This document shows positions 3,001-34,438 of a DNA stretch of 48,544 nucleotides, one piece after another (position 1 is the first letter of the stretch; every line of letters begins with the position of its first letter). The notes under the pieces were generated by a model. That model was given only the letters and a program-made list of their open reading frames with translations, made no database searches and was not told where the DNA came from. The position numbers were made by a program, and so were the translations under genes. Origin of the DNA: Tissierellia bacterium (GTDB lineage: Bacteria; Bacillota; Clostridia; Tissierellales; Tepidimicrobiaceae); NCBI GenBank assembly GCA_012799055.1, contig JAAZMA010000262.1, positions 1 through 48,544 on the forward strand, in the 5' to 3' direction.

Positions 3001-4697
3001 TAGGTTTTGGTTTAAATCCCTGTGGGGCTATAGAAGTGGAGTTAAATCTTAAACCTAATGAAGAAAAACAATTAGTATTTTTACTAGGTGAAAATGATGA
3101 TATTGAAATAGGGCATGGTTTAATAAATAAATATAGAAATATTGAATTATCTAAAAAGTCCTTAGAAGAAATAAAAGATTTTTGGAGAAAAAAACTTAGT
3201 ATTATAAAAATAAATACCCCTGATAATAGTATGAATTATTTAATGAACAATTGGCTAATGTATCAGACTATTGCCTGTAGAATATGGGGAAGGGCAGGCT
3301 TTTATCAGGTAGGCGGTGCTTTTGGGGCAAGGGATCAAATGCAGGATACTATGAATGCCCTATACCATGTACCCAGTGAAGGGAGAAGACAAATCCTTGA
3401 AAATTGTAAGCATCAATACAAGGAAGGAGATGTGCAACATTGGTGGCACCCTATACCAGATTCAGAAGTTCATAAGGGAATTAGAAGTAAATATACAGAT
3501 GATTTATTATGGCTACCCCTAGGAGTTTCAGAATATATTTTAAAAACAGGAGATGAAAGTATATTAAAAGAAAAGATTCCCTTTATAGAAAGCCCTATTT
3601 TAGAAGAAGATGAAGAGGAAAGATATGAGGTACCTTCCATATCTAAGGATATAGGTACTGTATATGAACACTGTATTAGAGCCATTGAAAAATCTCTTAA
3701 ATTTGGTGAAAGGGGATTGCCCCTAATGGGGGGAGGAGATTGGAATGATGGAATGAATAAAATTGGCTACAAGGGATTTGGAGAATCTGTATGGCTAGGC
3801 TGGTTTATAATTACTGTTTTAAAATCCTTTATCCCCATATGTGAAAAAATGGAGGATTTTAAAAAAGTAGAAAAATACAAAGGGATTATATTTAAGTTAA
3901 AAACTGCAATTGAAAAAAATGCTTGGGATGGAGAATGGTATAAAAGAGCCTTTTTTGATGATGGTACTCCCATTGGTTCAAAGGAAAATACTGAATGTAC
4001 AATAGATTCTATAGCCCAATCTTGGGCTGTTATTTCCCAGGCAGGAGATTTACAAAGGGTAAAAATAGCTTTAAATTCTGTAGAAAAACATTTAATAAAT
4101 AATGAAGAAGGCATAATAGCATTGTTAAATCCACCTTTTGAAAATACAGACTTAGACCCAGGATATATAAAATCCTATGTTCCAGGAGTAAGGGAAAATG
4201 GAGGCCAATATACCCATGCGGCCATATGGGTAATTAAAGCATTTGCATTATTAGGAGAAGGCGATAGGGCTTATGAATTATTTAAAATGGTCAATCCTAT
4301 AAATCATACTAGGTCCTTAATAGAATGTGCCAAATACAAAGTTGAACCCTATGTGGTAGCTGCTGATGTATATACTAATCCTCAGCATCTAGGTAGGGGC
4401 GGGTGGACTTGGTACACAGGCTCATCAGGATGGATGTATAAAGTGGGCTTGGAAAATATACTAGGTTTTAGAATAGAAAAAAATAAATTATATATAGACC
4501 CATGTATACCTAAGGATTGGGAAAAATATAGTATTAGATATAGACATGGCTCCACCTATTATAATATAGAAGTAAGAAATTTAAATAAGATAAATAAAGG
4601 AGTAAGTAAAATAATATTAGATGGAGTAGCAATTAAGGAAGAATATATTGATTTAGTAGATGATGGAGTAGAACATTTTATCTCAGTAAGCCTATAG
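3..4697 (+). CDS. GH94-family glucan phosphorylase / cyclic beta-1,2-glucan synthase (NdvB/ChvB)-like protein, C-terminal ~1560 aa; the 5' end lies outside the window
   Basis: The reading frame is open from nt 3, so the listed TTG at 60 is internal. Motifs typical of the NdvB middle and GH94 C-terminal regions are present: 'LYDEKRDLFYIGYN', 'SWSGTMFEYLMPSLV', 'GAFGARDQMQD' and 'PLMGGGDWNDGMN'. Stop codon at 4695-4697. Confidence 0.85.
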   Translation: MEELIDNTKFKPLYDEKRDLFYIGYNVEEGMVLNSYYDLLASESRTTSYITISRGEVPLSHWNRLGKSLIKEKGYLALASWSGTMFEYLMPSLVLKDYENSLIDESNKTAIKIQKDYGNSHKVPWGISESGFFAFDRQLNYQYKAFGIPSLGFMRGLKDELVVSPYSSFLALKFDYAGVLENIKKLESEGLRGEYGYYEAVDYTLSRLPEHLEKGIVKSYMSHHQGMILVSINNLLNKNIMVNRFHREPQMKCGELLLQEKIPLRPIISKEKENLVERRTIKAKKKPYKNRVYGKSGLKDIKCHILSSNTYSLMINNRGEGFSKNGNIFINRWRRDFLSTPYGQFIYIKDLKNNSIWSGAFAPMYKESDYYNVEFSSYKASFHRKDGDVETKMDVFLLPEELGEIRKVSLINNGEEEKLLETISYFEVVGEKINSDMAHPVFNNLFIKTEALEDVEGILAHRRKRGEDLRDIWILHGIRIFEKDWEKFQYETDRNKFIGRGNSLENPMGVVKGLSNTTGVVLEPIMSIGKKIKLKPKEKINIYYITAMAYSREEAISILNKYSIKENIIMAKDLSNTKSQTEIDFLNLNQKNIGFAEKLLPYLFYLKKDFKSKYKYILKNNIKGKEGLWGHSISGDNPIVLITIKTLEGLENIEKILDAYEYWLYKGIKVDLIILNEEKSTYHQPLFQNIREIIYERGGYKGGIFLKNKNAMENEELALFYKWADLIIDGDRGFSVDREFKDSIPCREFNGEKIYYPEENKVLELEYFNGYGGFSEDGTEYIIKLNKDINTPTPWINVIANKYFGFIITEMGTGFTWSKNSRENKLTPWYNDLIMENPGEIVYLRDNDTGDIFSITPKPIRDEREYIITHGLGYTSFYHNSHGIQQELTMFIPKEDSVKVNLIKLKNNTNMERKISLFYYIRPVLGVIDEETESLLESDMTEGIFKIKNSTNLEFKNSTIFIGSSEEIKSYTGDRLEFLGKTPNYKTPESLKKERLSCNIGFGLNPCGAIEVELNLKPNEEKQLVFLLGENDDIEIGHGLINKYRNIELSKKSLEEIKDFWRKKLSIIKINTPDNSMNYLMNNWLMYQTIACRIWGRAGFYQVGGAFGARDQMQDTMNALYHVPSEGRRQILENCKHQYKEGDVQHWWHPIPDSEVHKGIRSKYTDDLLWLPLGVSEYILKTGDESILKEKIPFIESPILEEDEEERYEVPSISKDIGTVYEHCIRAIEKSLKFGERGLPLMGGGDWNDGMNKIGYKGFGESVWLGWFIITVLKSFIPICEKMEDFKKVEKYKGIIFKLKTAIEKNAWDGEWYKRAFFDDGTPIGSKENTECTIDSIAQSWAVISQAGDLQRVKIALNSVEKHLINNEEGIIALLNPPFENTDLDPGYIKSYVPGVRENGGQYTHAAIWVIKAFALLGEGDRAYELFKMVNPINHTRSLIECAKYKVEPYVVAADVYTNPQHLGRGGWTWYTGSSGWMYKVGLENILGFRIEKNKLYIDPCIPKDWEKYSIRYRHGSTYYNIEVRNLNKINKGVSKIILDGVAIKEEYIDLVDDGVEHFISVSL

Positions 4698-8803: not shown

Positions 8804-9370
8804 ATGAAACTTTTAAAAGACAGGATACTTCAAGATGGGACTGTAGAAGAAGATATATTAAAGGTTGGGAGCTTTTTAAATCATCAAATAGATGTGAAAT
8901 TATTAAATGAAATAGGGAAAGAGTTTAAAGAGCGATTTAAAGATAAAAAAGTTGACAAGATATTAACAATTGAAACTTCCGGTATAGCTATTGCAGTTAT
9001 AGCTGCCCAGTATTTTCATGTACCTGTAGTTTTTGCCAGAAAAACAGAATCTAAAACTATGGACAAAGACCTTTACGAATCCACAGTTTATTCTTATACC
9101 AAAGAAAAGAATTATACCATAAAAGTGTCAAAAAAATTTTTAAATGAAGGAGAAAACGTTTTATTAATAGATGATTTTTTAGCCAGAGGCAGGGCAATTG
9201 AAGGATTAATAGATATATTAAAGCAGGCTAATGTTAATTTAGTAGGAGTTGGCATTGTTATAGAGAAAGGGTTTCAAGAAGGGGGTAAGGTTCTAAGAGA
9301 TAAGGGGATTTTAATAGAATCCTTAGCTATTATAGATAAACCAGTAGATGGAAAAATTAAATTTATGTAA
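8804..9370 (+). CDS. xpt: Xanthine phosphoribosyltransferase
   Basis: '[14 protein letters not shown]...[10 protein letters not shown]' N-terminus and PRT motif '[13 protein letters not shown]'. The ATG at 8804 is preceded by GGGGAGG. The listed GTG at 8777 has no SD. Confidence 0.9.
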
Positions 9371-9391
9371 TAAATGGATTTTTTTATTTTA

Positions 9392-9420
9392 TTGAATTCA
9401 AAAATTAATTATGGTATATT
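9392..9420 (+). promoter_or_regulatory. Candidate sigma-A promoter with extended -10 (TTGAAT-17 nt-TATATT, TG at -15/-14)
   Basis: TTGAAT at 9392-9397 and TGGTATATT at 9412-9420 with an exact 17-nt spacer. It would give a ~280-nt leader for nfnA. Confidence 0.4.
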
Positions 9421-9707
9421 AAAAATGTACTATTTGTGAAATATATGACATAACTTAGTATTCTAATGGGTTTTAGCATAGGTTTTTTTGATAAATTTAA
9501 GGATAAGACCATTGGAAATATTGATAATATAATAATTTACTATAGATTTTGTCTATGGATAGCACTAGTTTACAGAAGATTTGCTATTTAAAATCAATTT
9601 ATTTATTAGTTCACAATATTATTAGTCATATAAATAACTATTCTTTAATAATTATACAAAATGCTATATAATTAAAATAACAATATTTAGTAAGGGAGGA
9701 GTATTAA

Positions 9708-10586
9708 TTGTATAAAATTGTAGAAAAAAAGGAACTAGCCCCTAATATCTATTCCATGGATATTTTGGCTCCAAGGGTAGCTAATTCTGCCCAACCAGGT
9801 CAGTTTGTGATTGTAATAACTGACGAATCAGGTGAAAGAATTCCTCTAACTATTTGTGATTATGACAAAGAGAAGGGAACAGTTAATATAGTTGTACAGG
9901 CTATGGGCTGTTCTACTAAGAAAATGGTTGCATTGGAAGAAGGGGAATACTTTAAAGATTTTGTAGGTCCCTTAGGAAAACCTTCCGATTATGTAAACAT
10001 GGACTTAGAGGAAGTAAAAAAGAAAAAATATATTTTTGTAGCTGGAGGTGTTGGTGCAGCACCTGTATATCCCCAAGTAAAATGGTTCCATGAGAGAGGT
10101 ATTGATGTAGATGTAATAGTAGGCGCTAAAACTAAAGATTTAGTAATATTAGAAGATAAAATAAAAGAAGTAGCTGGTAATTTATATATTGCAACTGATG
10201 ATGGTAGTTATGGATATAATGGTATGGTTACAGGTTGTTTAGAAGATTTAGTTAAAAATCAAGGTAAAAAATATGATCAATGTATTTCCATAGGACCTAT
10301 GATAATGATGAAATTTGTATCATTACTCACTGAAGAATTGGGGATACCAACAGTAGTAAGCCTTAATCCTATTATGGTAGATGGTACAGGAATGTGTGGT
10401 GCTTGTAGAGTTTCTGTTGGAGATGAAACTAAATTTGCTTGTGTAGATGGGCCAGAATTCGATGGACATCTTGTAGATTTTGATGAAGCATTAAAGAGAC
10501 AAGCTCAATATAAATCAGAGGAAGTAAAATTAGATAAAAAAGTAGAAGAAGATTGTAAGATAGAAGATCAGGGAGGTGCCAAATAA
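9708..10586 (+). CDS. nfnA: NfnA-like FAD/NAD(P)-binding [2Fe-2S] subunit (PyrK/SudB-type; ferredoxin-NADP+ reductase small subunit)
   Basis: 'PGQFVIV...ERIPLTI' FAD-binding barrel, 'FVAGGVGAAPV' nucleotide-binding loop, and C-terminal cluster 'GTGMCGACRV...FACVDGPEF'. TTG start lies 7 nt after AGGGAGGA. The stop overlaps the nfnB start (TAATG). Confidence 0.8.
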   Translation: MYKIVEKKELAPNIYSMDILAPRVANSAQPGQFVIVITDESGERIPLTICDYDKEKGTVNIVVQAMGCSTKKMVALEEGEYFKDFVGPLGKPSDYVNMDLEEVKKKKYIFVAGGVGAAPVYPQVKWFHERGIDVDVIVGAKTKDLVILEDKIKEVAGNLYIATDDGSYGYNGMVTGCLEDLVKNQGKKYDQCISIGPMIMMKFVSLLTEELGIPTVVSLNPIMVDGTGMCGACRVSVGDETKFACVDGPEFDGHLVDFDEALKRQAQYKSEEVKLDKKVEEDCKIEDQGGAK

Positions 10587-11977
10587 TGGATAGATTTACC
10601 AGAACTCCTATTTCCAATCAAGATCCAAAAGTTAGAGCAACAAATTTTGATGAAGTATGTCTTGGATATACAGAAGAAGAGGCAATTAAAGAGGCAAAGC
10701 GATGTATACAATGTAAAAAACCTACTTGTAGACCAAAGTGCCCTGTAAACATTGATATACCTGAATTTATAGGTCATATTGCCCAGGGAGAGTTTGAAGA
10801 AGCTGCCCATTCCCTTGCAAAATACACTGCACTTCCTGCAGTTTGTGGAAGAGTTTGTCCACAAGAAACTCAATGTGAAAGTACATGTATTTTAGGGAAA
10901 AAAGGGGATCCTATAGCCATAGGAAAACTTGAAAGATTTGCAGCAGACTGGGCTAGAAAGAACAATATAGATGTAGGTAAGACTAAGGAGAAAAATGGTT
11001 TTAAAGTTGCAGTAATAGGCTCAGGTCCTGCAGGAATTACTTGTGCAGGAGATTTAGTGAAGGAAGGTTATGATGTTACAATATTTGAAGCCTTACATGA
11101 ACCAGGAGGAGTATTAGTATATGGAATTCCTGAGTTTAGACTTCCTAAAGAAGATGTAGTGAAACCAGAAATAGAAAATTTAAAGAAATTAGGAGTAAAA
11201 ATAGAAACTAATGTAATTGTAGGTAGAACTGTAACCATAGATGATTTAATGGAAAAAGAAGGTTTCCATGCAGTATTTATTGGTTCAGGTGCAGGACTTC
11301 CAATATTTATGGGAATACCTGGCGAAAATTTAAACGGGGTATTTTCAGCAAATGAATTTTTAACTAGAAACAATTTAATGAAGGCCTTTAGAAAAGATTA
11401 TGACACACCTATTAAGGTAGGGGAAAAGGTAGCAGTTATTGGTGGAGGAAATGTGGCTATGGACGCTGCTAGAACTGCCTTAAGACTTGGTGCTGAAGTA
11501 TATATAGTATATAGGAGAACTCAAGAAGAACTTCCAGCTAGAGTAGAAGAAGTCCATCATGCCATGGAAGAAGGAGTTAAGTTTGAATTTTTAACCTCAC
11601 CTGTAGAAGTCATAGGCAATGAAAATGGCTGGGTGAAGGCTATTAGATGTCAGAGAATGGAATTAGGGGAACCAGATGCTTCTGGTAGAAGAAGACCAGT
11701 TCCAATAGAAGGTTCTGAATTTGAATTTGATGTAGATACAGTAATAATGGCATTAGGTACATCACCAAATCCATTAATACCCTCTACTACAGAAGGACTT
11801 GAAATAAACAAATGGCAATGTATTGTTGCAGATGAAAATGGGCAAACTTCTAGAGAAGGAGTATTTGCAGGTGGAGATGCTGTAACTGGCGCTGCCACAG
11901 TAATACTTGCCATGGGTGCAGGAAAAGACGCTGCAGCTGGCATAGACAAATATATAAAAGAAAAATACGGTAAATAA
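10586..11977 (+). CDS. nfnB: NfnB / GltD-like NADPH-dependent oxidoreductase large subunit (homotetrameric glutamate synthase-like)
   Basis: 'CIQCKKPTCRPKCPVNIDIPEFI' and 'CGRVCPQETQCESTC' Fe-S motifs. 'VAVIGSGPAGITCAGDL' and 'VAVIGGGNVAMDAAR' are Rossmann loops. Confidence 0.85.
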   Translation: MDRFTRTPISNQDPKVRATNFDEVCLGYTEEEAIKEAKRCIQCKKPTCRPKCPVNIDIPEFIGHIAQGEFEEAAHSLAKYTALPAVCGRVCPQETQCESTCILGKKGDPIAIGKLERFAADWARKNNIDVGKTKEKNGFKVAVIGSGPAGITCAGDLVKEGYDVTIFEALHEPGGVLVYGIPEFRLPKEDVVKPEIENLKKLGVKIETNVIVGRTVTIDDLMEKEGFHAVFIGSGAGLPIFMGIPGENLNGVFSANEFLTRNNLMKAFRKDYDTPIKVGEKVAVIGGGNVAMDAARTALRLGAEVYIVYRRTQEELPARVEEVHHAMEEGVKFEFLTSPVEVIGNENGWVKAIRCQRMELGEPDASGRRRPVPIEGSEFEFDVDTVIMALGTSPNPLIPSTTEGLEINKWQCIVADENGQTSREGVFAGGDAVTGAATVILAMGAGKDAAAGIDKYIKEKYGK

Positions 11978-13498: not shown

Positions 13499-13519
13499 TA
13501 TTTTAATTGTATTACAAAT

Positions 13520-13558
13520 AACTACCCTTTTTAAGGCCTGGCCCTAGAAAGGGTAGTT
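13520..13558. terminator. Bidirectional hairpin between convergent genes; it overlaps the last 9 codons of the minus-strand flavoprotein gene
   Basis: Stem AACTACCCTTT / AAAGGGTAGTT with an internally self-complementary loop (AGGCCTGGCCCT). T-rich sequence follows on the plus strand. Confidence 0.65.
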
Positions 13559-14583
13559 ATTTTTATAGCAAAATCCTTGGCCTCTTTTTCTATATTGGGT
13601 ATATTTAAAATCGCACCTTTATCATTAGCTGTAGCCATTAAGGAAAAGTATGGAGGTAGTCTAAAGGTTTTGTTTATATTTAAACTACTAATTAATTGTT
13701 TGGCTAAGGCATCTCCACCAGAATGGCCAGAGACTATAATGGAAAATATGCTTTTATTAAAAAATTTTGTCTTTCTATATAGGGCAGTAAGCCTATTAAT
13801 TAAGGCTACTATATTTGCCCCAAGCATATCATTATAATTTGGACAAATAAATACTAAAATGTCGGATTCTAATATAGCTGGATACACTTCTTCTACTACT
13901 ATTCCGCCGTAAAAACATTTCATTTCACTTCCAAAATATTTACAGGTTTTATAGGGACATCCTTTACAATCTACAATATTTCCATTGCCTATATTTATTT
14001 CTTGAATTTCCATATCTAAATTAGATTTTACCATATCCCATAATGTTAAAGTGTTGGAAGTTGCACGATTACTAGAGTGTAATGCTAATAATTTTGGATT
14101 TTTTATATATGAAACCTTATCATTTACAAATCTCTCTCCTAATTCTCTACATTGATATAGACAGATTTCTTCTAAATCCATATTATAAACTTTTTTTAAG
14201 GGAATAAGATTGTCTAAATTTCCAGTGGCTTCAACCATAGGTCGCCCTACAAATCTACAACCTAATAAATTAGCTTTAAATATTATAGATTGAGCAGCTG
14301 TTTTGGTAAATAATTGATAATTACTATGGATTAATACTATGGCACTGGAACCATATAGGGCATCATTTCCCCTTAGGAATAATTTTTGAAATATATTATT
14401 TAAATTGCTGCTTTCTCCAGTTATAGGTAATTCTATTGCAAAAATAATTCTTTTATTTCTTAAATCTGGCAATTCACCATGGGGCTCAACTATTATATAA
14501 GGAATGCCTTCTAAAGTATTATCTATCATTTTATTTAAAAATGGAGAAGGTTTTTCAGGTAGAATTAAACAATATTCTATCAT
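13531..14583 (-). CDS. Two-domain flavodoxin-fold protein. The C-terminal half is NADPH-dependent FMN reductase / iron-sulfur flavoprotein (Isf)-like with a compact 4-Cys motif
   Basis: C-terminal half: 'LLALHSSNRATSNT' (FMN phosphate loop GSxRxxSxT type), 'DCKGCPYKTCKYFGSEMKC' (CX2CX4CX8C) and 'ILVFICPNYNDMLGANIVALINR'. The N-terminal ~165 aa looks like a degenerate flavodoxin-like domain. The start overlaps the upstream stop (ATGA). Confidence 0.6.
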   Translation of the reverse strand: MIEYCLILPEKPSPFLNKMIDNTLEGIPYIIVEPHGELPDLRNKRIIFAIELPITGESSNLNNIFQKLFLRGNDALYGSSAIVLIHSNYQLFTKTAAQSIIFKANLLGCRFVGRPMVEATGNLDNLIPLKKVYNMDLEEICLYQCRELGERFVNDKVSYIKNPKLLALHSSNRATSNTLTLWDMVKSNLDMEIQEINIGNGNIVDCKGCPYKTCKYFGSEMKCFYGGIVVEEVYPAILESDILVFICPNYNDMLGANIVALINRLTALYRKTKFFNKSIFSIIVSGHSGGDALAKQLISSLNINKTFRLPPYFSLMATANDKGAILNIPNIEKEAKDFAIKITTLSRARP

Positions 14584-15830
14584 ATAATACTCACTAGCCT
14601 TTCATAAGTGTTATTTATTTTTTTGAACAAAGCCTTTGGCAAAGGCAATTGCTCTATTTCTATTTGATTATTTTTTAATCTACATTTAGAACCTATATAT
14701 GCCTCTCCCATATAGGTGGAACCATAAAACCAATCCCCTTTAATAGTTGAAATTATAGACAAGGCTCCAGAAGACAAACTAGGTGCCACATAGGGTTTAT
14801 AGCCTAATTTCCGAACTTCCTTATTAGCATTAATTGTTTTTTCAGTTAAATAATTGGATAGTTCTTCATTGTAGTTTTTTATACTATTGGCTATTATAAG
14901 ACCTTCACCATGGGGGCCGAAGGCTCTACCTTCATCTAAATAATGGGTAGTTTCATTAGATTTTTCTCCATAGTATGAAGCCCTTCCATTCATAACCCCT
15001 AGACCATAACCTATAATTTGATTGGAAGCTAGTCCCTTAAAATCAAAATCTCCATTTTCATCTTTATTGCTTTCTAAAAAAACTACTTTACATAGTAAGT
15101 CCACTGGATCCGATACTACTGCAAAAATTCCTTTGAAATTTTTTTCCCTTGCTAAAAAGGCGTATTCCTTAATAATTTCTGAATTACTATTAAATTGAGC
15201 CATTCTTACATCCTCCACTGGACTACCTACTGGTGGTATTCCTTTGGAGGCACAAAATACAAACATATCACAATTAAACAAATTTTCCTTATCTATTATA
15301 TTTACTGGTGGAAAGGCCTTTTCATGGAAGGGTTTTCTAATTTGATTTAATTCATATTCCCATCTTTGTAGCCGATTTGGATTTCTATCATAAATTCCAA
15401 TATTCTCTATAGTTTCTTCACCTAATAGTCTTAATCCTATGGCTAAAGTACTACCTACATCTCCCAATGCTAATAGATTTATCTTCCATTTTCTTTTAGT
15501 TTCTAAATTTAAGACATTTTCCCAATTTGGGTATTTAGTGTTTATAGATATTACCATGTCTTGATTAATTTTTTCTATTATCCAATTTGGTACTTTGCTT
15601 GAATAATTTTCATTGTCCAAAAGTAATAGATGAATACCTTCTTCTCTATTAAACAATAGGGAAGGGTGATTTATTAAATAGCTTTGCCTAGATTTCAAAG
15701 GCTCTATTCTATTTAGGAAATAAAGTTTTCCACTATTAGATTTGGCTTCTTCTTCACTAATAGTATGAAAATTTCTATACTCATAAAGGGAGAAGAAATA
15801 TTCGCCCCTGTATTTGTAATAATTAAACAT
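14580..15830 (-). CDS. Lactate/malate dehydrogenase-family Rossmann protein with a ~115-aa N-terminal extension and atypical substrate-site residues
   Basis: 'KINLLALGDVGSTLAIGL' (GxGxxG type), 'IGIYDRN' (acidic residue after beta-2), 'MFVFCAS', 'VVSDPVDLL' (= VSNPVD), 'GVMNGRASYY' and 'FGPHGEG' (= GEHG catalytic His). Confidence 0.65.
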   Translation of the reverse strand: MFNYYKYRGEYFFSLYEYRNFHTISEEEAKSNSGKLYFLNRIEPLKSRQSYLINHPSLLFNREEGIHLLLLDNENYSSKVPNWIIEKINQDMVISINTKYPNWENVLNLETKRKWKINLLALGDVGSTLAIGLRLLGEETIENIGIYDRNPNRLQRWEYELNQIRKPFHEKAFPPVNIIDKENLFNCDMFVFCASKGIPPVGSPVEDVRMAQFNSNSEIIKEYAFLAREKNFKGIFAVVSDPVDLLCKVVFLESNKDENGDFDFKGLASNQIIGYGLGVMNGRASYYGEKSNETTHYLDEGRAFGPHGEGLIIANSIKNYNEELSNYLTEKTINANKEVRKLGYKPYVAPSLSSGALSIISTIKGDWFYGSTYMGEAYIGSKCRLKNNQIEIEQLPLPKALFKKINNTYERLVSII

Positions 15831-15837
15831 ATTATCC

Positions 15838-18800
15838 CTACTTTCTATTTAAATCTTTATGAATTATATTTTCAATTCTTATTAAATGTTCCAAATCCCC
15901 TTCTAGACAAGCTGAAGGTTTTTGATTTCCATAGTATTCCATAGACTTATAGGTATCTGGTCTTCTTGGGGAGGTTAATACTTCACCTAAATTTCTTATG
16001 ATTAAACTTTTTTCATTAATTTCTTGATATACTTGTTCTATTGATTTAAATATTTCTATTGCATTAATTAAGCAGGTTTCTGATAAATTATATATGGCTT
16101 TTGCAGTAGTGTTTTTTATAAAAGATGGAGAGGCATAGGGAAGAATTAAATTGATACTAGGAATTAAATTATCATAATCAGTACCTTCCCTATAGACCAT
16201 ATCTCCACCTATAAATGGGTATTGATCTGATTCGTTAAACCAAATTTTTAAATTAGGTACAAAATAAGCAGCATCTACATCTAGATTTTTAATATCTCCA
16301 ATTTCTTTGCCACGGCCTGTAAGTATTCCAACTATAACTTTATTAATATCTATATTAGCTTTTTTTATAATAGGTTCTATTACATTTAATCGATAGCCTT
16401 TATGCAGTAAATCATCTACTAAAATCATTGGTCTATTAAAGGATTTAAAAACTTTAGCCTGATTTTCTAAACTTAAATAATTTGGATAGGCAGCAATAGT
16501 AAAATCAGTAATCATTGGATTAAATATTTTCTCAGTATGCATAGTTTTTGTAACAGTGTTTGGCAAAATCATTCCATTTAGTATAGAACCAAAGGGTACA
16601 CAAATATTTGGGCCAAGGGTTCTTACTTCTTTCTGTAATATAGATACTTTATTGGCATCGCAAATTTTTTGTATTAATTTACTATATATCATATCTTCAT
16701 TAAAGGATAATAAAAGTTCTCCAGGATATAAACTAGATAATACCTCCTTTAAAGCTTTTCTAGATTTTCTAATGGTTTCTTGAATTTGAGGATTACTATC
16801 ATAAGGTGGTTTTAATAGATTTCCCAAATCTTGATTTAATGTCATAGGATTGTTCATATCCACTATAAATAAAGGACTATTATTGTAGTTAAAAGGGGTT
16901 TCTATAAAGCCTTGGATTTTCAAGCTTTCTTCTAGCTCTTTTCTGTTTTTATAACTTAAAGCATTTTTAAATAGGGCATAATTGTAATCATTTGCTATAA
17001 TATATGCTAAAGTTTCATTTAATACAGTTTCAATTAAATAGTCATCGGTATATTTAGTGTATATACCAGATAAAACAACTAATTTTCCCCTTGAATGAAT
17101 TCTTAGATATTGTGTTATATCCCTATTTTTAAATTCCTCAAATAACAAACTAGAGGGAACCCAATAAAATGTAGAAAATCCTAATATGGAATTGTCCTCT
17201 GTGTTTTTTACCAACAAAATTCTATATTCCAATTTATTTCTTAATTCATAAAGGGCTTCCATATACAATTCATGTCCAAATTTTTTCTCTAAATATTCTA
17301 TAAAATTGTCATTTAAATCCTCAATTATTTCAATTTCAATAGTTTTAGTTTGAACTAAAGATTTATACTGAGGTTCTCTCAAATATAGACCATATCTATA
17401 AATATATTGCTGAGCCAATGGGTCAACCTGTTTGGAAATATCCCTATTTAAATCTATAAAATTTCGAATTTGAGTAGAAGAAATATCTTCATATTGAGGA
17501 GGTAGACTTAAAATAAGCACATCTCCCTTTAAATTTTCAAGTCTTTTTTCTAATAGTATATCCTCGTTTTCTTTAGATTGTTGAGATTTTCTATCAAATA
17601 TTATATGAGATAATTTATTTAATTCTCCTTCTCTTTCATAGGCAGAAGCGTTGATTAATACATCAGTACCTACTACCATATAGACTTGTCTATTTCCAAA
17701 TAAATCTTGTAATTTTAGCAAATCCTCATCATTACTAATATTAATTGGAATTTCACTGGGAAAAAGAAATATATCTTTTTCTTGGGCTATGGTCATATTT
17801 ACAATATCTCTTCTAAATTTGTGAGGTTGGGTCCTTTTAGACCAGGAAAATTCATCTACTGCTAAATATACTTCAAATCCCAAATCTCTAATTTCCAGGG
17901 CAATTTCCTTATGACTTAGTGAAAAAGGGTCAAAGCTTCCAGGGAAAAATGCTACTTTGTCTTTGCTACTCATTTCTATATTTCCATGGTAAAATTCATA
18001 ATCTAGTATAAATCTATAAACATGATTTAAAGAAGCAGAATTATTTAAAAATAGAAATTTATCTTCTTCTTTTTGTGGTAATAGTGTAAACATTTTTTTG
18101 CCAATTAGTGTAAAAATATTATGTTTTTCTGTTAATAATAGATTATTGGAATTAAGTACTTGACTCCCAAGTATTCTAAAGGCTTCAGTTTTTATTTCTT
18201 TATCATAAGATCCCATACCACTTAATAGTATTCCTAATAATCGATATAGCCTTTCTTCATATACATTTTCATCCTCTTTAAATCTATCTTTATACTTAGG
18301 ATAATGTTCTATACATATTCCAGTGGTTCTTAAAAGCAAAAATACTATTTGAGTATTTGATTGTTTAATTTTTTCTTCAAAATCATCTATTATTTCATCT
18401 AATTCAGTAGGCTGTAAATATAACAATAGTTGACCTAGATAATCTGGTATATATTTGGTAAATTGGTAATTTTGCATTTCTAAAGCTCTTAACAATTCAA
18501 CGGCAATATCATTTCTTTCTCCTAAGGACAAAAATTCAAATATATTTAATAGAGTATGTCCTGCATAATTGCGAACCTTTTCTACTGCTGAAACCTTTAA
18601 TAAATTACAAAAATGCATACCAGTATGAAGTCCTGTAGTATCTGGAAATTTTTTAACTTGGTCATAAAGTATATCTATATTTACTTTTTTGTTCATCCAA
18701 TCAGTGGCAGTTTTAAGATTATTTAAAAATATTTCTTGGATATTTTCTTCATCTTTTTCATAATTATACTTAAGTGTTTTTAATATTTTTTTCTCTAGAT

Positions 18801-20694
18801 TAAGTTTTTTGCCAATCTTATATTTTAAATAGTTTTCAGCAGTATAGGGAGAGGGGTAGGTGTTTTCTAAAAGCCAATTTTTAAGTCTAGATTTAAAATC
18901 CCTATTATCCCATAGTTCTCTATATATTTCATCTATAATATCTAAAGTAGTAAGTCTAATTTCTAAAAAATTAGAGTTTAATTGTTCCATAATGTAGTTT
19001 TCATATTTTTTTAAATTTTCTTCACTTAAATAATATATGGGAATATATTTTATTGTTTGAGATAAATACAATTGCCCTGTTGGAGATATGTTTTTATAGT
19101 TTTCGTAGTATTTTATTAAAATATTGGAGTATTTTTCAAAGTTTTTTATATTGGAATTATAAAATAAGGATTTTATTATGGTTTTTAAATTGTATTGCCA
19201 TTCAATGGGAGATTCTTCGATTTTATGATCTGGATAAAGTATATAATGTAGTAGATTGTCCAATAATCCTTCACTGGTAGTTTTAGGTTTTGATTTATTA
19301 ATAGATTTAGGTATTTCTTTTCTATATTCTTCATCATATTGGCTAATTAATAGTCCAATTAGTTCAGCAGCTTCTTTTCTAATATCTTCTTCATTGTGAA
19401 ATAGTAAATCTACCATAAAGTATAATGTAATTACTTTTTGTTTTTGAGTTAAATAATTGGAGTATTCTCTAAATATTTGAAGATATAATCGTAGTTTTCT
19501 CCAATTGTATTCAGAACGGGCCATTTCTATTATATTATTAAAAGATGTATCATCTAAAAATTTTGCCATTAAATCAATATTATGTTCAATTGCAAAGTAT
19601 TTTAAATTGTCTACAATATCTTCATTTTCCATTAGGGAAAAAGGTTTATTTACTATTATAGGATTTAGGCCTTTACTAAGAGTAGTATCTACTCCAAGAC
19701 TTATCATATAATCTTCAAAATCTTTTAATTTCCTATAAACTTTTTCATATCTTTTTTCTTTTTTAGCATCTAAATTATCCAATTTATTTAAAATTATATC
19801 ATAGGCTTCCTCTAGGGTGTAAATATACATTTTATACTCATTGTTTTGGATTTTATTTTTAACTCTAAAATCTGCATAAATAAGTACTAGGGATTCTAAA
19901 GGTAGATTTTCTAGTTCTAAATCCCAGGTAGAATGATTAGTTGCTATATGGCCAATTTTTTCTGCGTTAAATCTATTAAACCACTCTTCAGTATAATAAT
20001 AATGTAAATATGGCACTCTATGACTTTCTTCCTCCATAACACCGTATTTGCCAATATCATGTCCTAGTCCTGAGCCTGTTACAATACCTAAATCTATAGG
20101 TAGATTTAAGGATTTTAATTGTCTAGCAATATTTAAACTTAAATGATTGACCCCTACCACATGTTCTATAGTATTGTGTCCTGTAAGGGATAAATCTAAT
20201 TTCATTAACTCATATACCCAATTATTTAAAAAGGCAGTTTTAAAATTTAAATATTCTTTTAAATAATTAGTGTCTTTTTCTTCTTTTTCACTTAAAAAGG
20301 AGATAGGATATTTATATAAAAAATTATTTTCATCATAGTGGATTTCGTACTGGGAAAAAACTCTTAGTATATTTAAGTAAAATAGTACTAAGGGTTCTAA
20401 ACCTTTATGAAAATTTCCATTGTTTTTTTCAGGAAAAGATAATTTTAAAACCCAATTATAAATATATTGAAGCCATTCTATTTCTCCTATATCCCAATGT
20501 TTTCTATATAATGGGTAAAACAACTTCATTAAAGCTAGAGCATCGTATTTATTTTTCAAGACTATTTCCCCTAAATAGTCTTGAAAATCATTTCGATTTA
20601 CTATTTTTAAATAATCTTCATAATAAAATTTTAAATAATCTTTATTTATTTCTTTTAAAATTATTTGATATATTTCTCGTTGAGCCTTAATCAT
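15838..20694 (-). CDS. Uncharacterised 1618-aa multidomain protein: HD phosphohydrolase, HEAT-like repeats, NadD/PPAT-like nucleotidyltransferase, GNAT-like region, type-I phosphoribosyltransferase-like domain
   Basis: HD: 'IEHVVGVNHLS...GSGLGHDIGKYG...LIYADFRV' (aa ~170-280). Nucleotidyltransferase: 'VAFFPGSFDPFSLSH', 'MVVGTDVL', 'ISSTQIRNFI', 'YIYRYGLY' (aa ~912-1105). PRT: 'RPMILVDDLLHKGYR' (aa 1421-1435). HEAT-like: 'EEDIRKEAAELIGLL', 'DKEIKTEAFRILG'. The ATG overlaps the sdaAA stop (ATGA). Confidence 0.7.
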   Translation of the reverse strand: MIKAQREIYQIILKEINKDYLKFYYEDYLKIVNRNDFQDYLGEIVLKNKYDALALMKLFYPLYRKHWDIGEIEWLQYIYNWVLKLSFPEKNNGNFHKGLEPLVLFYLNILRVFSQYEIHYDENNFLYKYPISFLSEKEEKDTNYLKEYLNFKTAFLNNWVYELMKLDLSLTGHNTIEHVVGVNHLSLNIARQLKSLNLPIDLGIVTGSGLGHDIGKYGVMEEESHRVPYLHYYYTEEWFNRFNAEKIGHIATNHSTWDLELENLPLESLVLIYADFRVKNKIQNNEYKMYIYTLEEAYDIILNKLDNLDAKKEKRYEKVYRKLKDFEDYMISLGVDTTLSKGLNPIIVNKPFSLMENEDIVDNLKYFAIEHNIDLMAKFLDDTSFNNIIEMARSEYNWRKLRLYLQIFREYSNYLTQKQKVITLYFMVDLLFHNEEDIRKEAAELIGLLISQYDEEYRKEIPKSINKSKPKTTSEGLLDNLLHYILYPDHKIEESPIEWQYNLKTIIKSLFYNSNIKNFEKYSNILIKYYENYKNISPTGQLYLSQTIKYIPIYYLSEENLKKYENYIMEQLNSNFLEIRLTTLDIIDEIYRELWDNRDFKSRLKNWLLENTYPSPYTAENYLKYKIGKKLNLEKKILKTLKYNYEKDEENIQEIFLNNLKTATDWMNKKVNIDILYDQVKKFPDTTGLHTGMHFCNLLKVSAVEKVRNYAGHTLLNIFEFLSLGERNDIAVELLRALEMQNYQFTKYIPDYLGQLLLYLQPTELDEIIDDFEEKIKQSNTQIVFLLLRTTGICIEHYPKYKDRFKEDENVYEERLYRLLGILLSGMGSYDKEIKTEAFRILGSQVLNSNNLLLTEKHNIFTLIGKKMFTLLPQKEEDKFLFLNNSASLNHVYRFILDYEFYHGNIEMSSKDKVAFFPGSFDPFSLSHKEIALEIRDLGFEVYLAVDEFSWSKRTQPHKFRRDIVNMTIAQEKDIFLFPSEIPINISNDEDLLKLQDLFGNRQVYMVVGTDVLINASAYEREGELNKLSHIIFDRKSQQSKENEDILLEKRLENLKGDVLILSLPPQYEDISSTQIRNFIDLNRDISKQVDPLAQQYIYRYGLYLREPQYKSLVQTKTIEIEIIEDLNDNFIEYLEKKFGHELYMEALYELRNKLEYRILLVKNTEDNSILGFSTFYWVPSSLLFEEFKNRDITQYLRIHSRGKLVVLSGIYTKYTDDYLIETVLNETLAYIIANDYNYALFKNALSYKNRKELEESLKIQGFIETPFNYNNSPLFIVDMNNPMTLNQDLGNLLKPPYDSNPQIQETIRKSRKALKEVLSSLYPGELLLSFNEDMIYSKLIQKICDANKVSILQKEVRTLGPNICVPFGSILNGMILPNTVTKTMHTEKIFNPMITDFTIAAYPNYLSLENQAKVFKSFNRPMILVDDLLHKGYRLNVIEPIIKKANIDINKVIVGILTGRGKEIGDIKNLDVDAAYFVPNLKIWFNESDQYPFIGGDMVYREGTDYDNLIPSINLILPYASPSFIKNTTAKAIYNLSETCLINAIEIFKSIEQVYQEINEKSLIIRNLGEVLTSPRRPDTYKSMEYYGNQKPSACLEGDLEHLIRIENIIHKDLNRK

Positions 20695-21557
20695 AAAATC
20701 CTCCTTTTTATATCTTCGCCAGTAGGTGTAGCTGCTACACCACCTAGAGCAGTTTCTCTTAAAGATTCAGGCATGGCTTTGCCTACTTTATACATGGCTT
20801 CTACCACTTCGTCAAAGGGTACCATAGACTTTACACCTGCCATGGCTAAATCTGCAGATACTAATGCATTAATTACACCAGAGGCATTTCGTAATGCACA
20901 GGGGAATTCCACTAAACCTGCTACTGGATCACATACTAAACCCATAATATTAAGTAATGCAAAGGATGCACCATGTAGGGAAGTTTCTGGTTCACCGCCA
21001 ATCATTTCTATAATAGCTCCTGCAGCCATAGCAGCTGCTGCACCACATTCTGCTTGACATCCTCCTTCTGCTCCAGAAATAGTGGCATTTTTAGCTATTA
21101 TTTCTCCAATCCCTCCCGCTGTAAATAAACCATAAATCATTTCTTTTTCACTTAAATTATATTTTTCTGAAACTATTATTATGGCACTGGGAAGTATGCC
21201 AGATGCACCAGCTGTAGGAGCTGCTACTATTTTTCCCATGGAAGCATTTACTTCGGAAGTAGATAAAGCCATGGCCATGGCAGAATTAATAATTTCACCA
21301 CAAATGGTATTTCCCATATTTTTGTATTTTTCCACTTTTTTAGCATCTCCACCTGTAAGTTTCGATACAGAAATTACTTCTTTATTTAATGCAGATTTAG
21401 AGGAACTTATCATAGTATCTAAAACTAATTTCATATTATCTATTAATTCTTCATAGGGCAAACCTCTTTCTGCCATTTCTTTTGCTATTACTATTTCAGA
21501 AATTTTTTTATTTTGTTCATTACATAATTTTAATAATTCATTTCCTTTATTATACAT
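20691..21557 (-). CDS. sdaAA: L-serine dehydratase, iron-sulfur-dependent, alpha subunit
   Basis: 'TGGDAKK', 'NASMGKIVAAPTAGASGILP', 'ISGAEGGCQAECGAAAAMAA', 'LVCDPVAGLVEFPC' and 'ETALGGVAATPTG', colinear with Bacillus SdaAA. Confidence 0.92.
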   Translation of the reverse strand: MYNKGNELLKLCNEQNKKISEIVIAKEMAERGLPYEELIDNMKLVLDTMISSSKSALNKEVISVSKLTGGDAKKVEKYKNMGNTICGEIINSAMAMALSTSEVNASMGKIVAAPTAGASGILPSAIIIVSEKYNLSEKEMIYGLFTAGGIGEIIAKNATISGAEGGCQAECGAAAAMAAGAIIEMIGGEPETSLHGASFALLNIMGLVCDPVAGLVEFPCALRNASGVINALVSADLAMAGVKSMVPFDEVVEAMYKVGKAMPESLRETALGGVAATPTGEDIKRRIL

Positions 21558-21560
21558 ATT

Positions 21561-22229
21561 TTACCTCCCAATTGGATTGATTCCAGTAATATAAATGATT
21601 TCGTCTAAGGCTTTTATTTTATTAATAATAATATCCTCTATGGGACTGTCAATTTCCATAACCATAGTGGCAATTTTTCCTTCTCGTGAGACTTTCATAG
21701 TGGCAATATTAATGTCTTCATTTGAAAGTATTGAGCTAATTCTACTAATAGAGCCTTTTCTGTCTGTATACTTAATTAATATAGTTGGATAATTACCTGT
21801 AAATTCTATATTAATGCCATTTAAATTAGTAATTAATATATTACCACCACCTATAGATGAACCAATTAAATAATAGTCTTCCTTATTTTTATAATGAAAT
21901 ACAATTTTAACTGTATTGGGATGTTCATATCCTAAGTCTGTTTCTATAAATTCTATATTAATGCCTTTTTCCTTGGCAATATTTAATGAATCCTTAATTC
22001 TTTCATCGGAGGGTTCCATTCCTAAAACCCCTGCTACTAAGGCTCTGTCTGTTCCATGGCCTCTATAGGTTTTGGCAAAGGAACCATGGAGAAAAAAACT
22101 AACTCCTGTAAAAGAAGTATTGGCAATTTCTCGTCCAATTTTTCCAAGTCTAGCAGCACCTGCAGTATGAGAACTGGAAGGACCAATCATAATGGGACCT
22201 AATATATCAAAAACTCCATAATTTTTCAT
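21561..22229 (-). CDS. sdaAB: L-serine dehydratase, iron-sulfur-dependent, beta subunit (with C-terminal ACT domain)
   Basis: 'MKNYGVFDILGPIMIGPSSSHTAGAARLG' and 'GSFAKTYRGHGTDRALVAGVLG'. The preferred start is the ATG at 22229 (AAAGGA SD). The ORF track's upstream ATG at 22265 would add 12 aa. Confidence 0.9.
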   Translation of the reverse strand: MKNYGVFDILGPIMIGPSSSHTAGAARLGKIGREIANTSFTGVSFFLHGSFAKTYRGHGTDRALVAGVLGMEPSDERIKDSLNIAKEKGINIEFIETDLGYEHPNTVKIVFHYKNKEDYYLIGSSIGGGNILITNLNGINIEFTGNYPTILIKYTDRKGSISRISSILSNEDINIATMKVSREGKIATMVMEIDSPIEDIIINKIKALDEIIYITGINPIGR

Positions 22230-22297
22230 TTTATCATCCTTTCCCCGTTTTATTAATTTTAGCATTTAATTAAAATTATGGCAATAAAAAAGGAGGT

Positions 22298-22942
22298 CTA
22301 GCCTCCTAAGGTAATATCCTGTTCATTGTACCAATTTAGTGCATTGTAAAAATGTTCTTTTTTAAAATCAGGCCAATAATCCTCCACAACAAAAAAATCC
22401 GCATATACAGATTGAATGGGAGGAAAACCGCTAAGTCTTCTTCTACCGCCCCAGCGAATAATTAAATCCACTCTAGAAATATCTCTAGATTTAATAGAAT
22501 CCATAATATTATCATCTTTATTTTCTTTGGAAAAGGAATCTTTTAAATCCCATTGCCATCCATAATTTACAAGAAAATTTACTTTAGTTTTACCCTCTCC
22601 AAAGACTTGTCTTCTAATGGTAAAGGGAATTAAGGCCTTAGGAAACATATCTGTACTAGTATTGCCTACAACTAATAAAGAGGCATTTTCTTTTGCTAAA
22701 AGTTTTACTGCATCTATACAAGCTTGAGTAAAAGCCAATCTTTGAACCTTAGGTCTTTTAGTATTGTCCATTGTGAAACCATAGTATGTAATTTCTTCTA
22801 CACCTACTTTTTCACAAAGTTTAAATAATTCTAATCCAGGATTAAGACCTTTGTCATAGCCTTTTTCTTTAGATAATCCATTTTCTACTGCCCATCTTCT
22901 ATTTCCATCGGGAATAATTCCTATATGTTTAGGTATTCGCAT
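22298..22942 (-). CDS. Short, divergent cis-prenyltransferase (UppS family) homolog
   Basis: 'PKHIGIIPDGNRRWA' (= HxAIIMDGNxRWA), 'ITYYGFTMDN' and 'DLIIRWGGRRRLSGF'. It is only 214 aa, and the canonical RxSNFLLWQ motif is replaced by 'RLSGFPPIQ'. SD AGGAGG. Confidence 0.7.
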   Translation of the reverse strand: MRIPKHIGIIPDGNRRWAVENGLSKEKGYDKGLNPGLELFKLCEKVGVEEITYYGFTMDNTKRPKVQRLAFTQACIDAVKLLAKENASLLVVGNTSTDMFPKALIPFTIRRQVFGEGKTKVNFLVNYGWQWDLKDSFSKENKDDNIMDSIKSRDISRVDLIIRWGGRRRLSGFPPIQSVYADFFVVEDYWPDFKKEHFYNALNWYNEQDITLGG

Positions 22943-23003: not shown

Positions 23004-23030
23004 AAAATGGACTATAAAAAGGTCCATTTT
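23004..23030 (-). terminator. Terminator hairpin at the end of the pspC-domain gene (overlaps its stop codon)
   Basis: Minus strand reads AAAATGGAC-CTTTTTATA-GTCCATTTT followed by TCTTGAATTATTT. Confidence 0.6.
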
Positions 23031-23424
23031 ATTCTTTATTAAGCACATTAATTATTATATAAAGTCCAAATATTATTAACAATACGGGCCAATACCTACC
23101 AATATTCATAATCTTGTGGGCAAATTGTGGCCATATTACTTTACTAAGCATTATGGTACCAATTACTATAAATGCAATGCCTATAAAAAAGGCAGTATTA
23201 TTTTTTGTTTTATCATCATAGTCTTGATAGATTACTCCATCGTCCTCAGGAATTATTAGTGCACAAATTAAATAAGCTAAAAAGCCAGGTCCTCCAGGCA
23301 TAAAAGCCAGTAATACCCAAATTATTCGAACTACTACAGGATCAATATTAAAATATTCTCCAATTCCACCACAAACTCCAGCAATAATTTTATCAGAACT
23401 GGAACGTTTCAATTTTTTATTCAT
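23029..23424 (-). CDS. PspC domain-containing membrane protein
   Basis: 'SSDKIIAGVCGGIGEYFNIDPVVVRIIWVLL' is a PspC-domain signature. Three to four hydrophobic helices follow. SD AGGAGGTG. Confidence 0.8.
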   Translation of the reverse strand: MNKKLKRSSSDKIIAGVCGGIGEYFNIDPVVVRIIWVLLAFMPGGPGFLAYLICALIIPEDDGVIYQDYDDKTKNNTAFFIGIAFIVIGTIMLSKVIWPQFAHKIMNIGRYWPVLLIIFGLYIIINVLNKE

Positions 23425-34225: not shown

Positions 34226-34400
34226 AGAATATTTCTGCGATGTACGTTGACCCATATAATTCAACCGACATGGTGAACACGGGAGTTCGGGTCCAGTAAT
34301 GTAGAGCAGGCCTTAAATGGAAGTTCGAAATTATTGGCAGGGCACCCACCTTGTGAGAGGCGGGTGTGAATTAGTTGGGATGGACGGCATCGCGGTAATA
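34226..34400 (+). ncRNA. ssrS: Candidate 6S RNA (ssrS-like), ~175 nt
   Basis: It has its own promoter and a downstream long hairpin. The 5' end TATTTCTGCGATG (34230-34242) pairs with the 3' end CATCGCGGTAATA (34388-34400). There is an apical helix CCAGTAAT/ATTATTGG and a 3'-side hairpin CACCCACC...GGCGGGTG. The region is visibly GC-richer than its flanks. Its ends and the GGUCC...AGCCUUAAA segment resemble E. coli 6S RNA as I remember it. Confidence 0.5.
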
Positions 34401-34438
34401 CAACAAACCCTTAGGATTTATCCTAAGGGTTTGTTGTA
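34399..34438 (+). terminator. Long perfect hairpin (probable terminator of the RNA gene; weak U-tract)
   Basis: TACAACAAACCCTTAGGAT-TT-ATCCTAAGGGTTTGTTGTA, followed by TTATGGG. Confidence 0.55.

Follow-up and report, generated by a model that had tools for sequence, protein, structure and literature searches.

A syntenic three-gene cassette built around a giant multidomain protein lies behind L-serine dehydratase genes in one lineage of Tissierellia

Do five adjacent minus-strand genes on a contig of a Tissierellia bacterium (GCA_012799055.1, JAAZMA010000262.1; 48,544 nt, the whole of which is called the window below) form one conserved system, and what might that system do? From the promoter onwards the genes encode the two subunits of L-serine dehydratase, SdaAB and SdaAA (open reading frames, ORFs, at 21561-22265 and 20691-21557), a giant multidomain protein of 1618 aa (15838-20694), a protein of 416 aa resembling lactate dehydrogenase (LDH-like; 14580-15830) and an iron-sulfur (Fe-S) flavoprotein-like protein of 350 aa (13531-14583). 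An initial annotation of this DNA had proposed that all five share a function in an undescribed metabolic or cofactor system, joining an enzyme that generates pyruvate and ammonia to nucleotide-enzyme modules and two redox proteins. In evolutionary terms, we found, the core consists of the giant, LDH-like and flavoprotein genes. They make up an autonomous cassette that is undescribed and strongly syntenic, and that has been placed behind sdaAB-sdaAA in a group of the closest relatives of the window, where its own promoter appears to have been lost. The cassette is made of known enzyme superfamilies in an undescribed combination, with the giant gene at its core.

We searched 80 species-representative loci, including flanks of at most 10 kb on either side, using every protein of the block, and allowed for contig ends in counting testable loci. 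Relatives of the giant protein of the same length numbered more than 4,800 in the database (counted as clusters), and at least 587 species-representative genomes encoded one. The LDH-like gene directly followed the giant gene in 67 of 69 testable loci, and the flavoprotein gene was found downstream in 62 of 65. The initial annotation had reasoned that its system would fall if the three downstream genes were not syntenic in relatives; with these counts they are, and the objection therefore does not hold. All 1,156 neighbouring ORFs were then clustered, yielding three families that recurred throughout the set, which were the trio itself (78, 68 and 63 loci), while the next largest family occurred in 17 loci. 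The other recurrent flanking genes were lineage-specific and of housekeeping type (Ndk, RlmN, PHP, GntR, IorAB, CobO/S, PGM, SbcCD and carAB/pyr, as well as panB/panG-like genes and an APH-family kinase gene); they changed from clade to clade and were otherwise unrelated. The trio was present across Tissierellia, Clostridiaceae, Peptostreptococcales-type genera and Atribacterota, and its three proteins co-diverged (r 0.88-0.93). Tight junctions also recurred in related loci, the LDH-like and flavoprotein genes mostly overlapping by 4 or 1 nt and the giant and LDH-like genes mostly lying 1-20 nt apart, and the close packing seen in the window is accordingly not a product of chance.

At the edge of the giant-protein family (28-30% identity), one of six sampled members had the full trio, two had the giant and LDH-like genes only, and three had the giant gene alone. 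Taken with the locus counts, this sampling gives an order of attachment to the giant gene in which the LDH-like gene comes first, the flavoprotein gene second and serine dehydratase a distant third. Two of the three members with the giant gene alone carried an APH-family kinase gene convergent downstream, and this kinase may partner the giant protein instead, supplying a phosphorylated substrate. Genes of the APH/choline-kinase family beside partnerless giant genes were located at 9040-9999 (L045), 10891-11841 (L084) and 10847-11776 (L086); the one in L045 overlaps the start of the giant gene and follows panG-like (DUF2520) and panB genes. In Clostridiaceae bacterium 35-E11 (L029, 2884-14800), a further partnerless giant gene is preceded by the co-oriented genes pyrB, pyrK, pyrD, carA and carB and shares 11 nt with carB; in this one genome the arrangement hints at a tie to pyrimidine or phosphoribosyl pyrophosphate (PRPP) metabolism.

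The serine dehydratase genes followed a different pattern. sdaAA lay directly upstream of the giant gene in 14 of 69 testable loci, all of them from the closest relatives of the window (records named Tissierellia, Tissierellaceae, Tissierella and Clostridium sp. Cult3), and in most of these it overlapped the giant gene by 4 nt. In loci without sda genes, the trio usually had its own upstream region of 100-500 nt and was often divergent from a gene on the opposite strand. Five Gudongella/Soehngenia-type loci carried an ORF of ~95 aa with an ACT domain in the position of sda, with the trio intact. This ORF may have been left behind when an sda operon fusion was lost, or may encode a stand-alone regulatory ACT protein; it lies at about 9450-9940 of each 24-kb locus (L012, L015, L016, L018 and L021) and resembles the C-terminal part of SdaAB.

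Both dehydratase subunits are ordinary. SdaAB matched TIGR00719 at 264.6 bits (cut-off 161) and the Pfam families SDH_beta and ACT, and SdaAA (288 aa) matched TIGR00718 at 381 bits (cut-off 243) and Pfam SDH_alpha (E 6.8e-78). Like the known two-subunit Fe-S L-serine dehydratases, the pair scores above the equivalog cut-offs and is encoded in the order beta then alpha, 3 nt apart; all that sets it apart is its operon fusion to the cassette, which is specific to this lineage. One correction concerns the start of sdaAB, which had been placed at 22265. Translation almost certainly begins instead at the ATG at 22229, so that the gene spans 21561-22229. This ATG lies downstream of GGGGAAAGGA, the resulting 222 aa is the length found in most relatives, the TIGR00719 match starts at residue 13 of the longer ORF, with the 22229 start at position 1 of the model, and the ATG at 22265 falls within a conserved extended -10 box.

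That box belongs to a predicted sigma-A type promoter (22256-22284, minus strand) composed of TTGCCA, a 17-nt spacer and an extended -10 element TG-n-TAAAAT (TGcTAAAAT in the window). The corresponding element, TTGnnn-17-TGnTAnAAT, was found 35-40 nt before the sdaAB start, in the same position, in 14/14 sda-linked loci, whereas the 200 nt preceding the giant gene held no conserved promoter-like element in the window and these 14 loci. The promoter comes directly after the end of an upstream uppS-like gene, which terminates in a hairpin with a T-run (22291-22307). Downstream of it, all four junctions were read from the sequence as the initial annotation had described them, along with its ORF coordinates. 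Three nucleotides separate the sdaAB TAA from the sdaAA ATG, and GGGAGG lies within the last part of sdaAB; the sdaAA stop and the giant-gene start overlap as ATGA (20691-20694); 7 nt separate the giant-gene TAG from the LDH-like ATG (15830); and the LDH-like stop and the flavoprotein start overlap as ATGA (14580-14583). The block ends, as had been claimed, at a hairpin: a stem-loop on the minus strand over the flavoprotein stop codon, paired at about 13516-13562, had a folding energy of -27.4 kcal/mol (z = -5.9) that was equalled by 0/200 shuffles, and probably serves as a bidirectional terminator for the convergent MATE gene as well. Within the block we found two hairpin matches on the coding strand, near 14632-14646 (-12.5 kcal/mol, z = -2.3) and near 21268-21281 (-5.8 kcal/mol, z = -0.9), both weak and neither with a good T-run, in keeping with the earlier statement that no terminator interrupts it. 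With a conserved promoter before sdaAB, none before the giant gene, start and stop codons that overlap and no convincing internal terminator, the five genes are most likely a single transcript in this lineage, as judged from sequence features. Co-expression of the five genes, as initially proposed, is therefore supported for this organism and its close relatives, while the idea of one conserved five-gene system is not, given that sdaAA is attached in just 14 of the 69 testable loci.

Several observations concern the surroundings of this transcription unit. The region's best match to the sigma-70 consensus (TTGACA-16-TATTAT, 11/12) lies inside sdaAB at 21625-21652 (minus strand), starting ~70 nt ahead of sdaAA; matches of this promoter-like kind showed no enrichment in the AT-rich sequence, with 75 found and 67 expected from shuffles, so this one may be due to chance. 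The uppS-like gene (22298-22942, minus strand) encodes a cis-prenyltransferase of 214 aa that scored 106.1 bits against a uppS equivalog cut-off of 109.55 and may be a specialised UppS paralogue. It is preceded by a gene for a PspC/LiaF-TM membrane protein (23029-23424, minus strand), and in several relatives both genes (clusters c12 and c11) again lie upstream of sdaAB. On the other side of the operon and convergent to it, 9708-11977 (plus strand) holds genes for a PyrK-like Fe-S/FAD subunit and a GltA-type NADPH oxidoreductase, kept at the same position in close relatives (clusters c7 and c8).

The proposal that serine dehydratase supplies pyruvate and/or ammonia, which the LDH-like protein, the flavoprotein and the giant protein convert to a new metabolite or cofactor, can be weighed against these data. 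The single conserved promoter and the overlapping start and stop codons across the five genes of this lineage agree with it, as do equivalents of Arg171 and His195 in the LDH-like protein, which are expected for a 2-oxo acid of the pyruvate type. Against it, 55 testable loci lack an adjacent sdaAA, the cassette occurs alone from Clostridium to Atribacterota, and the trio is intact where the ACT ORF alone is left. Because serine dehydratase accompanies the trio in so few loci, confined to close relatives, a pathway fed by serine-derived pyruvate and ammonia is unlikely as the general function of the cassette, and we regard the five-gene pathway as a whole as quite improbable.

What the cassette does must then be sought in its own proteins, beginning with the giant one. 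Its architecture of ~1,600 aa was constant throughout the family, with, in order, an HD phosphohydrolase domain, a HEAT solenoid, a NadD-derived nucleotidyltransferase domain, an alpha/beta domain and a domain resembling type I phosphoribosyltransferases (PRT-like). The whole protein had no Pfam or NCBIfam equivalog and no sequence match in the PDB, also when family profiles were used as queries. Conservation of residues was counted over 31 divergent members of the family.

The HD domain (HDIG-type; residues ~170-285, 19840-20187, minus strand) was recognised by Pfam HD, and its residues H178, H212-D213, H231, H254 and D275 were each kept in 27/31 members, so that the HD metal-ligand set H...HD...D (H178, H212-D213 and D275) is present. 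We considered a YqeK-type identity for it and rejected it, as the HD segments of 7 diverse members matched no YqeK model at E <= 1. The same segments gave weak matches to HDIG, to TIGR00295 and to the HD part of a DVU_1551-type model only, and the profile of the giant family retrieved no YqeK structure from the PDB. The following alpha-helical region (residues ~340-900, 17995-19677, minus strand) is HEAT-like: Pfam HEAT repeats matched in 14/31 members and other HEAT/ARM models matched weakly, with no Pfam match in this region of the window protein itself.

The nucleotidyltransferase domain (residues ~910-1112, 17359-17967, minus strand) matched Pfam CTP_transf_like in 26/31 members, and Foldseek aligned it with Mycobacterium tuberculosis NadD (template-modelling score, TM, 0.79; E 1e-8). 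The alignment with NadD structures runs end to end and includes the first motif, DISSTxIR (DISSTQIR in the window) and a C-terminal GLY element; ISSTxIR was kept in 24-28/31 members. The HxGH motif is replaced family-wide by [S/T]x[S/G]H, which reads S-L-S-H in the window protein. PPAT uses TxGH, and the change need therefore not abolish catalysis.

These features bear on the possibility that the giant protein is an ordinary enzyme of NAD biosynthesis or salvage whose downstream neighbours are unrelated and merely co-transcribed. Source databases do name it nicotinate-nucleotide adenylyltransferase, and its nucleotidyltransferase domain does derive from NadD. Yet it scored 38.2 bits against the NadD equivalog TIGR00482, far below the cut-off of 112.45, and HxGH has been replaced throughout the family. 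Moreover, pyridine PRTs, those of the NAD pathway, have a type II fold and so differ in fold type from the PRT-like domain, and neighbours that were unrelated would be hard to reconcile with the synteny at 67/69 and 62/65 loci, the overlapping codons and the co-divergence of the three proteins. We therefore consider an ordinary NAD enzyme very unlikely.

With NadD and the YqeK(HD)-NadD fusion or gene pair of Firmicutes and mycoplasmas, the giant protein shares the NadD fold and an HD phosphohydrolase joined to the transferase, but its HD domain is N-terminal, is not of YqeK type and is followed by a HEAT solenoid of ~560 aa before the transferase. It also differs from them in its [S/T]x[S/G]H motif, in scores far below NadD cut-offs, and in having two extra C-terminal domains and two obligate-looking redox partners without counterpart. 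The multifunctional NAD salvage enzymes (NadR, NadM-Nudix, NadV+NadM), in which adenylylation comes after a PRT or kinase step, resemble it in the logic that we propose below, with a ribosyl-phosphate module, a mononucleotide adenylyltransferase and a hydrolase; unlike them, the giant protein has a PRT-like domain whose type I fold is divergent and reads KGYR instead of TGxT, and they lack HEAT, LDH-like and Fe-S flavoprotein components.

Next to the transferase lies an alpha/beta domain (residues ~1115-1295, 16810-17352, minus strand) that is GNAT-like by topology only. The initial annotation had called it a GNAT module, an identity for which we found no sequence support and which we set aside: the window segment had no Pfam match at E <= 5, a single member of 31 matched Acetyltransf_1 weakly (E 0.009), hhalign against RimI returned nothing, and the acetyl-CoA motif RxxGxG/A was absent between predicted strand 4 and helix 3. 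A structural model of residues 900-1618 was compact, with a predicted local distance difference test score (pLDDT) of 86 and a predicted TM score (pTM) of 0.86, and the order of its DSSP elements fits a GNAT topology. The compactness of this model suggests that all three C-terminal domains work together as a unit.

The last of these (residues ~1300-1618, 15841-16797, minus strand) is a divergent type I PRT-like domain. All 50 listed Foldseek matches were UPRT, XPRT, HGPRT or APRT (E 1e-5 to 3e-4, TM 0.39-0.50), Pfam Pribosyltran matched in 9/31 members, and hhalign placed VILVDDLLHKGYR on the PRPP loop of Upp. The strand and acidic pair of the PRPP loop are present (VILVDD; D1427 in 30/31 members and D1428 in 27/31), with a turn that reads K-G-Y-R where TGxT-like residues are usual. 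No part of the giant protein is more conserved than this domain, in which the motif PNTxTKxxHTE is invariant and specific to the family. A search of 1.84 billion representative proteins gave no stand-alone homologs of the C-terminal 514 residues; the 340 clusters that matched them comprised full-length members of ~1,600 aa and shorter, fragment-like proteins.

Could the giant protein be a regulator, in which writing and erasing follow the logic of GlnD and GlnE? The NadD-like domain would then nucleotidylate a protein, for example the LDH-like protein or the flavoprotein, or a small effector, and the HD domain would remove the mark, with the HEAT solenoid binding the target and the PRT-like and GNAT-like domains serving as ligand sensors. 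A nucleotidyltransferase and an HD hydrolase do occur here in one chain, with a solenoid of ~560 aa of protein-binding type between them; the PRT loop departs from the canonical form, and in PyrR and PurR a type I PRT fold has a sensing role; and members at the family edge can dispense with the partners. Set against this, to our knowledge transferases of the NadD type with a HIGH motif act on small phosphorylated metabolites and not on proteins, and the high conservation of the PRT-like domain, with its invariant PNTxTKxxHTE, fits catalysis better than sensing. On balance, we judge this regulatory scheme unlikely.

The two partner proteins point to redox chemistry. The LDH-like protein has an N-terminal extension of ~110 aa and matched Pfam Ldh_1_N at 28.4 bits, and hhalign matched its whole fold to that of human LDHA (283 columns at 94% probability). 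R209, R283 and H307, corresponding to R109, R171 and H195, are invariant, as are GxGxxG and the acidic residue of the NAD pocket. Two substitutions are invariant as well, M280 for D168 and D241 for N140, and the protein scored 34 bits against the L-LDH equivalog NF000824, whose cut-off is 339. Since R109, R171 and H195 are kept, D168 and N140 are replaced and the N terminus is extended, sequence comparison assigns it to a distinct branch of the LDH/MDH superfamily, in which it is probably still a 2-oxo/2-hydroxy-acid dehydrogenase dependent on NAD. With the L-lactate/malate dehydrogenase superfamily (Ldh_1) it thus has in common the NAD pocket, the two arginines, the catalytic-position histidine and the whole-fold alignment, and it departs from it in the Met at D168, the Asp at N140, the extension and the genomic tie to the giant gene.

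The flavoprotein-like protein combines an N-terminal domain of ~160 aa, for which no relatives were detected, with an FMN_red domain (66.6 bits, cut-off 24; 30/30 family members match). Its cysteines C206, C209, C214 and C223 are invariant and form CX2CX4CX8C. No sequence relative was found in the PDB, even by family profile. The iron-sulfur flavoprotein Isf, a relative of NADPH-dependent FMN reductases and flavodoxins, carries a [4Fe-4S] site at the corresponding four-Cys position, and the two proteins share FMN_red and a compact group of four Cys ~45-60 residues into the domain; the cassette protein differs in its CX2CX4CX8C spacing and its extra N-terminal domain. We thus predict an Isf-like protein with flavin mononucleotide (FMN) and Fe-S cofactors.

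For the trio as a whole no characterised ortholog was found, in agreement with the claim that the system is undescribed, and no functional assignment came from a Pfam or NCBIfam equivalog, a solved relative, a defence model or a riboswitch. Its proteins carry generic automatic names only ('cytidyltransferase' or 'NadD' for the giant one), the named homologs of the giant protein all come from little-studied genera, and a full-text literature search found no description of the family or its function. Domains of the HD, nucleotidyltransferase and PRTase types recur in anti-phage defence systems, which raises the idea of a nucleotide-based defence or conflict system. We rejected it, as none of the three trio proteins had a PADLOC match; the housekeeping chromosomal contexts, co-divergence with host lineages and the vegetative sigma-A type of promoter also argue against it, leaving a defence role with hardly any likelihood.

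The reading that we prefer, tentatively and in good part by analogy, is that the cassette would function as a self-contained unit for making and hydrolysing an NAD-like (di)nucleotide, coupled to two redox partners; we consider this quite possible. The C-terminal PRT-like domain would bind PRPP or a ribose-5-phosphate compound and form or hold a mononucleotide, whose phosphate the NadD-derived domain would adenylylate to give an NAD-like dinucleotide. The N-terminal HD domain would hydrolyse a pyrophosphate or phosphoester bond, for turnover or proofreading, much as YqeK does with NadD products. YqeK is an HD diphosphatase, fused to or clustered with NadD, that cleaves nicotinic acid adenine dinucleotide (NaAD) and mis-made analogues (PMC9426524). 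The HEAT solenoid of ~560 residues may provide a platform for the two translationally coupled partners, and the LDH-like enzyme and the Fe-S flavoprotein could make or modify a moiety of the 2-oxo/2-hydroxy-acid type or a base moiety, or could employ the product to carry redox equivalents. Sequence comparison indicates that key residues of the three predicted nucleotide-chemistry domains are under selection, and that the module is conserved, co-inherited and translationally coupled.

Several points weigh against this reading of a nucleotide-making module. The order of a PRT followed by an adenylyltransferase is taken from analogy with NAD salvage; by its sequence the HD domain is not of YqeK type; the first His of HxGH is replaced; and the LDH-like protein lacks a D168 equivalent. 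The PRT-like domain, given KGYR in place of TGxT and a fold match as distant as TM 0.4-0.5, could be regulatory or only ligand-binding. Partners drop out at the edge of the family, from which it follows that the giant protein can function without the LDH-like protein and the flavoprotein. The clustered neighbours included no conserved fourth gene that would point to a pathway, Rfam found no riboswitch or leader RNA upstream of the cassette in the window and 12 other loci, and the 45 upstream regions compared had no Rex box and no enriched 8-mer except -10-like words. The only Rfam match in the window was a 6S (SsrS) RNA gene at 34229-34402 (plus strand; 86 bits, gathering score 46.4), and in an Alkaliphilus metagenome-assembled genome (L033) a Clostridiales-2 small RNA (87 bits) lies at 1713-1795 (minus strand), immediately upstream of the giant gene, which is on the other strand.

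A bolder form of the preferred reading would have the cassette make, recycle and use a novel NAD-like dinucleotide or a nucleotide-linked 2-hydroxy-acid compound, which would serve anaerobic Bacillota and Atribacterota as a 'private' redox cofactor or signalling nucleotide. The giant protein would be a single-chain assembly line, running from a PRT-like step to adenylylation, with hydrolysis by the HD domain, and its partners a dedicated dehydrogenase and a ferredoxin-linked reductase held on the HEAT scaffold. We regard this as conceivable but doubtful.

Two other large proteins are encoded in the window. One, of 1,794 aa (42093-47477, plus strand), is an unusual signalling fusion of a Ser/Thr kinase, an AAA_16 ATPase, TPR repeats and a GGDEF diguanylate cyclase, and the other, of 1,545 aa (60-4697, plus strand), has glucoamylase-like, GH94 supersandwich and GH94 catalytic domains.

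For the biology of these organisms, the survey corrects a misleading automatic NadD annotation and identifies the serine dehydratase link as a lineage-specific operon fusion, which narrows the hypotheses and reduces the experimental target from five genes to three. Hundreds of anaerobe species retain a 1,600-residue enzyme whose three nucleotide-chemistry domains look intact, together with the same pair of redox partners, and the generic labels of this enzyme mark a sizeable blind spot in the metabolism of nucleotides and cofactors in Clostridia-type fermenters and in Atribacterota. If its product were a new dinucleotide or cofactor, a pathway would be added to that metabolism; if the protein were instead a regulatory writer and eraser, it would represent a new use of the NadD fold.

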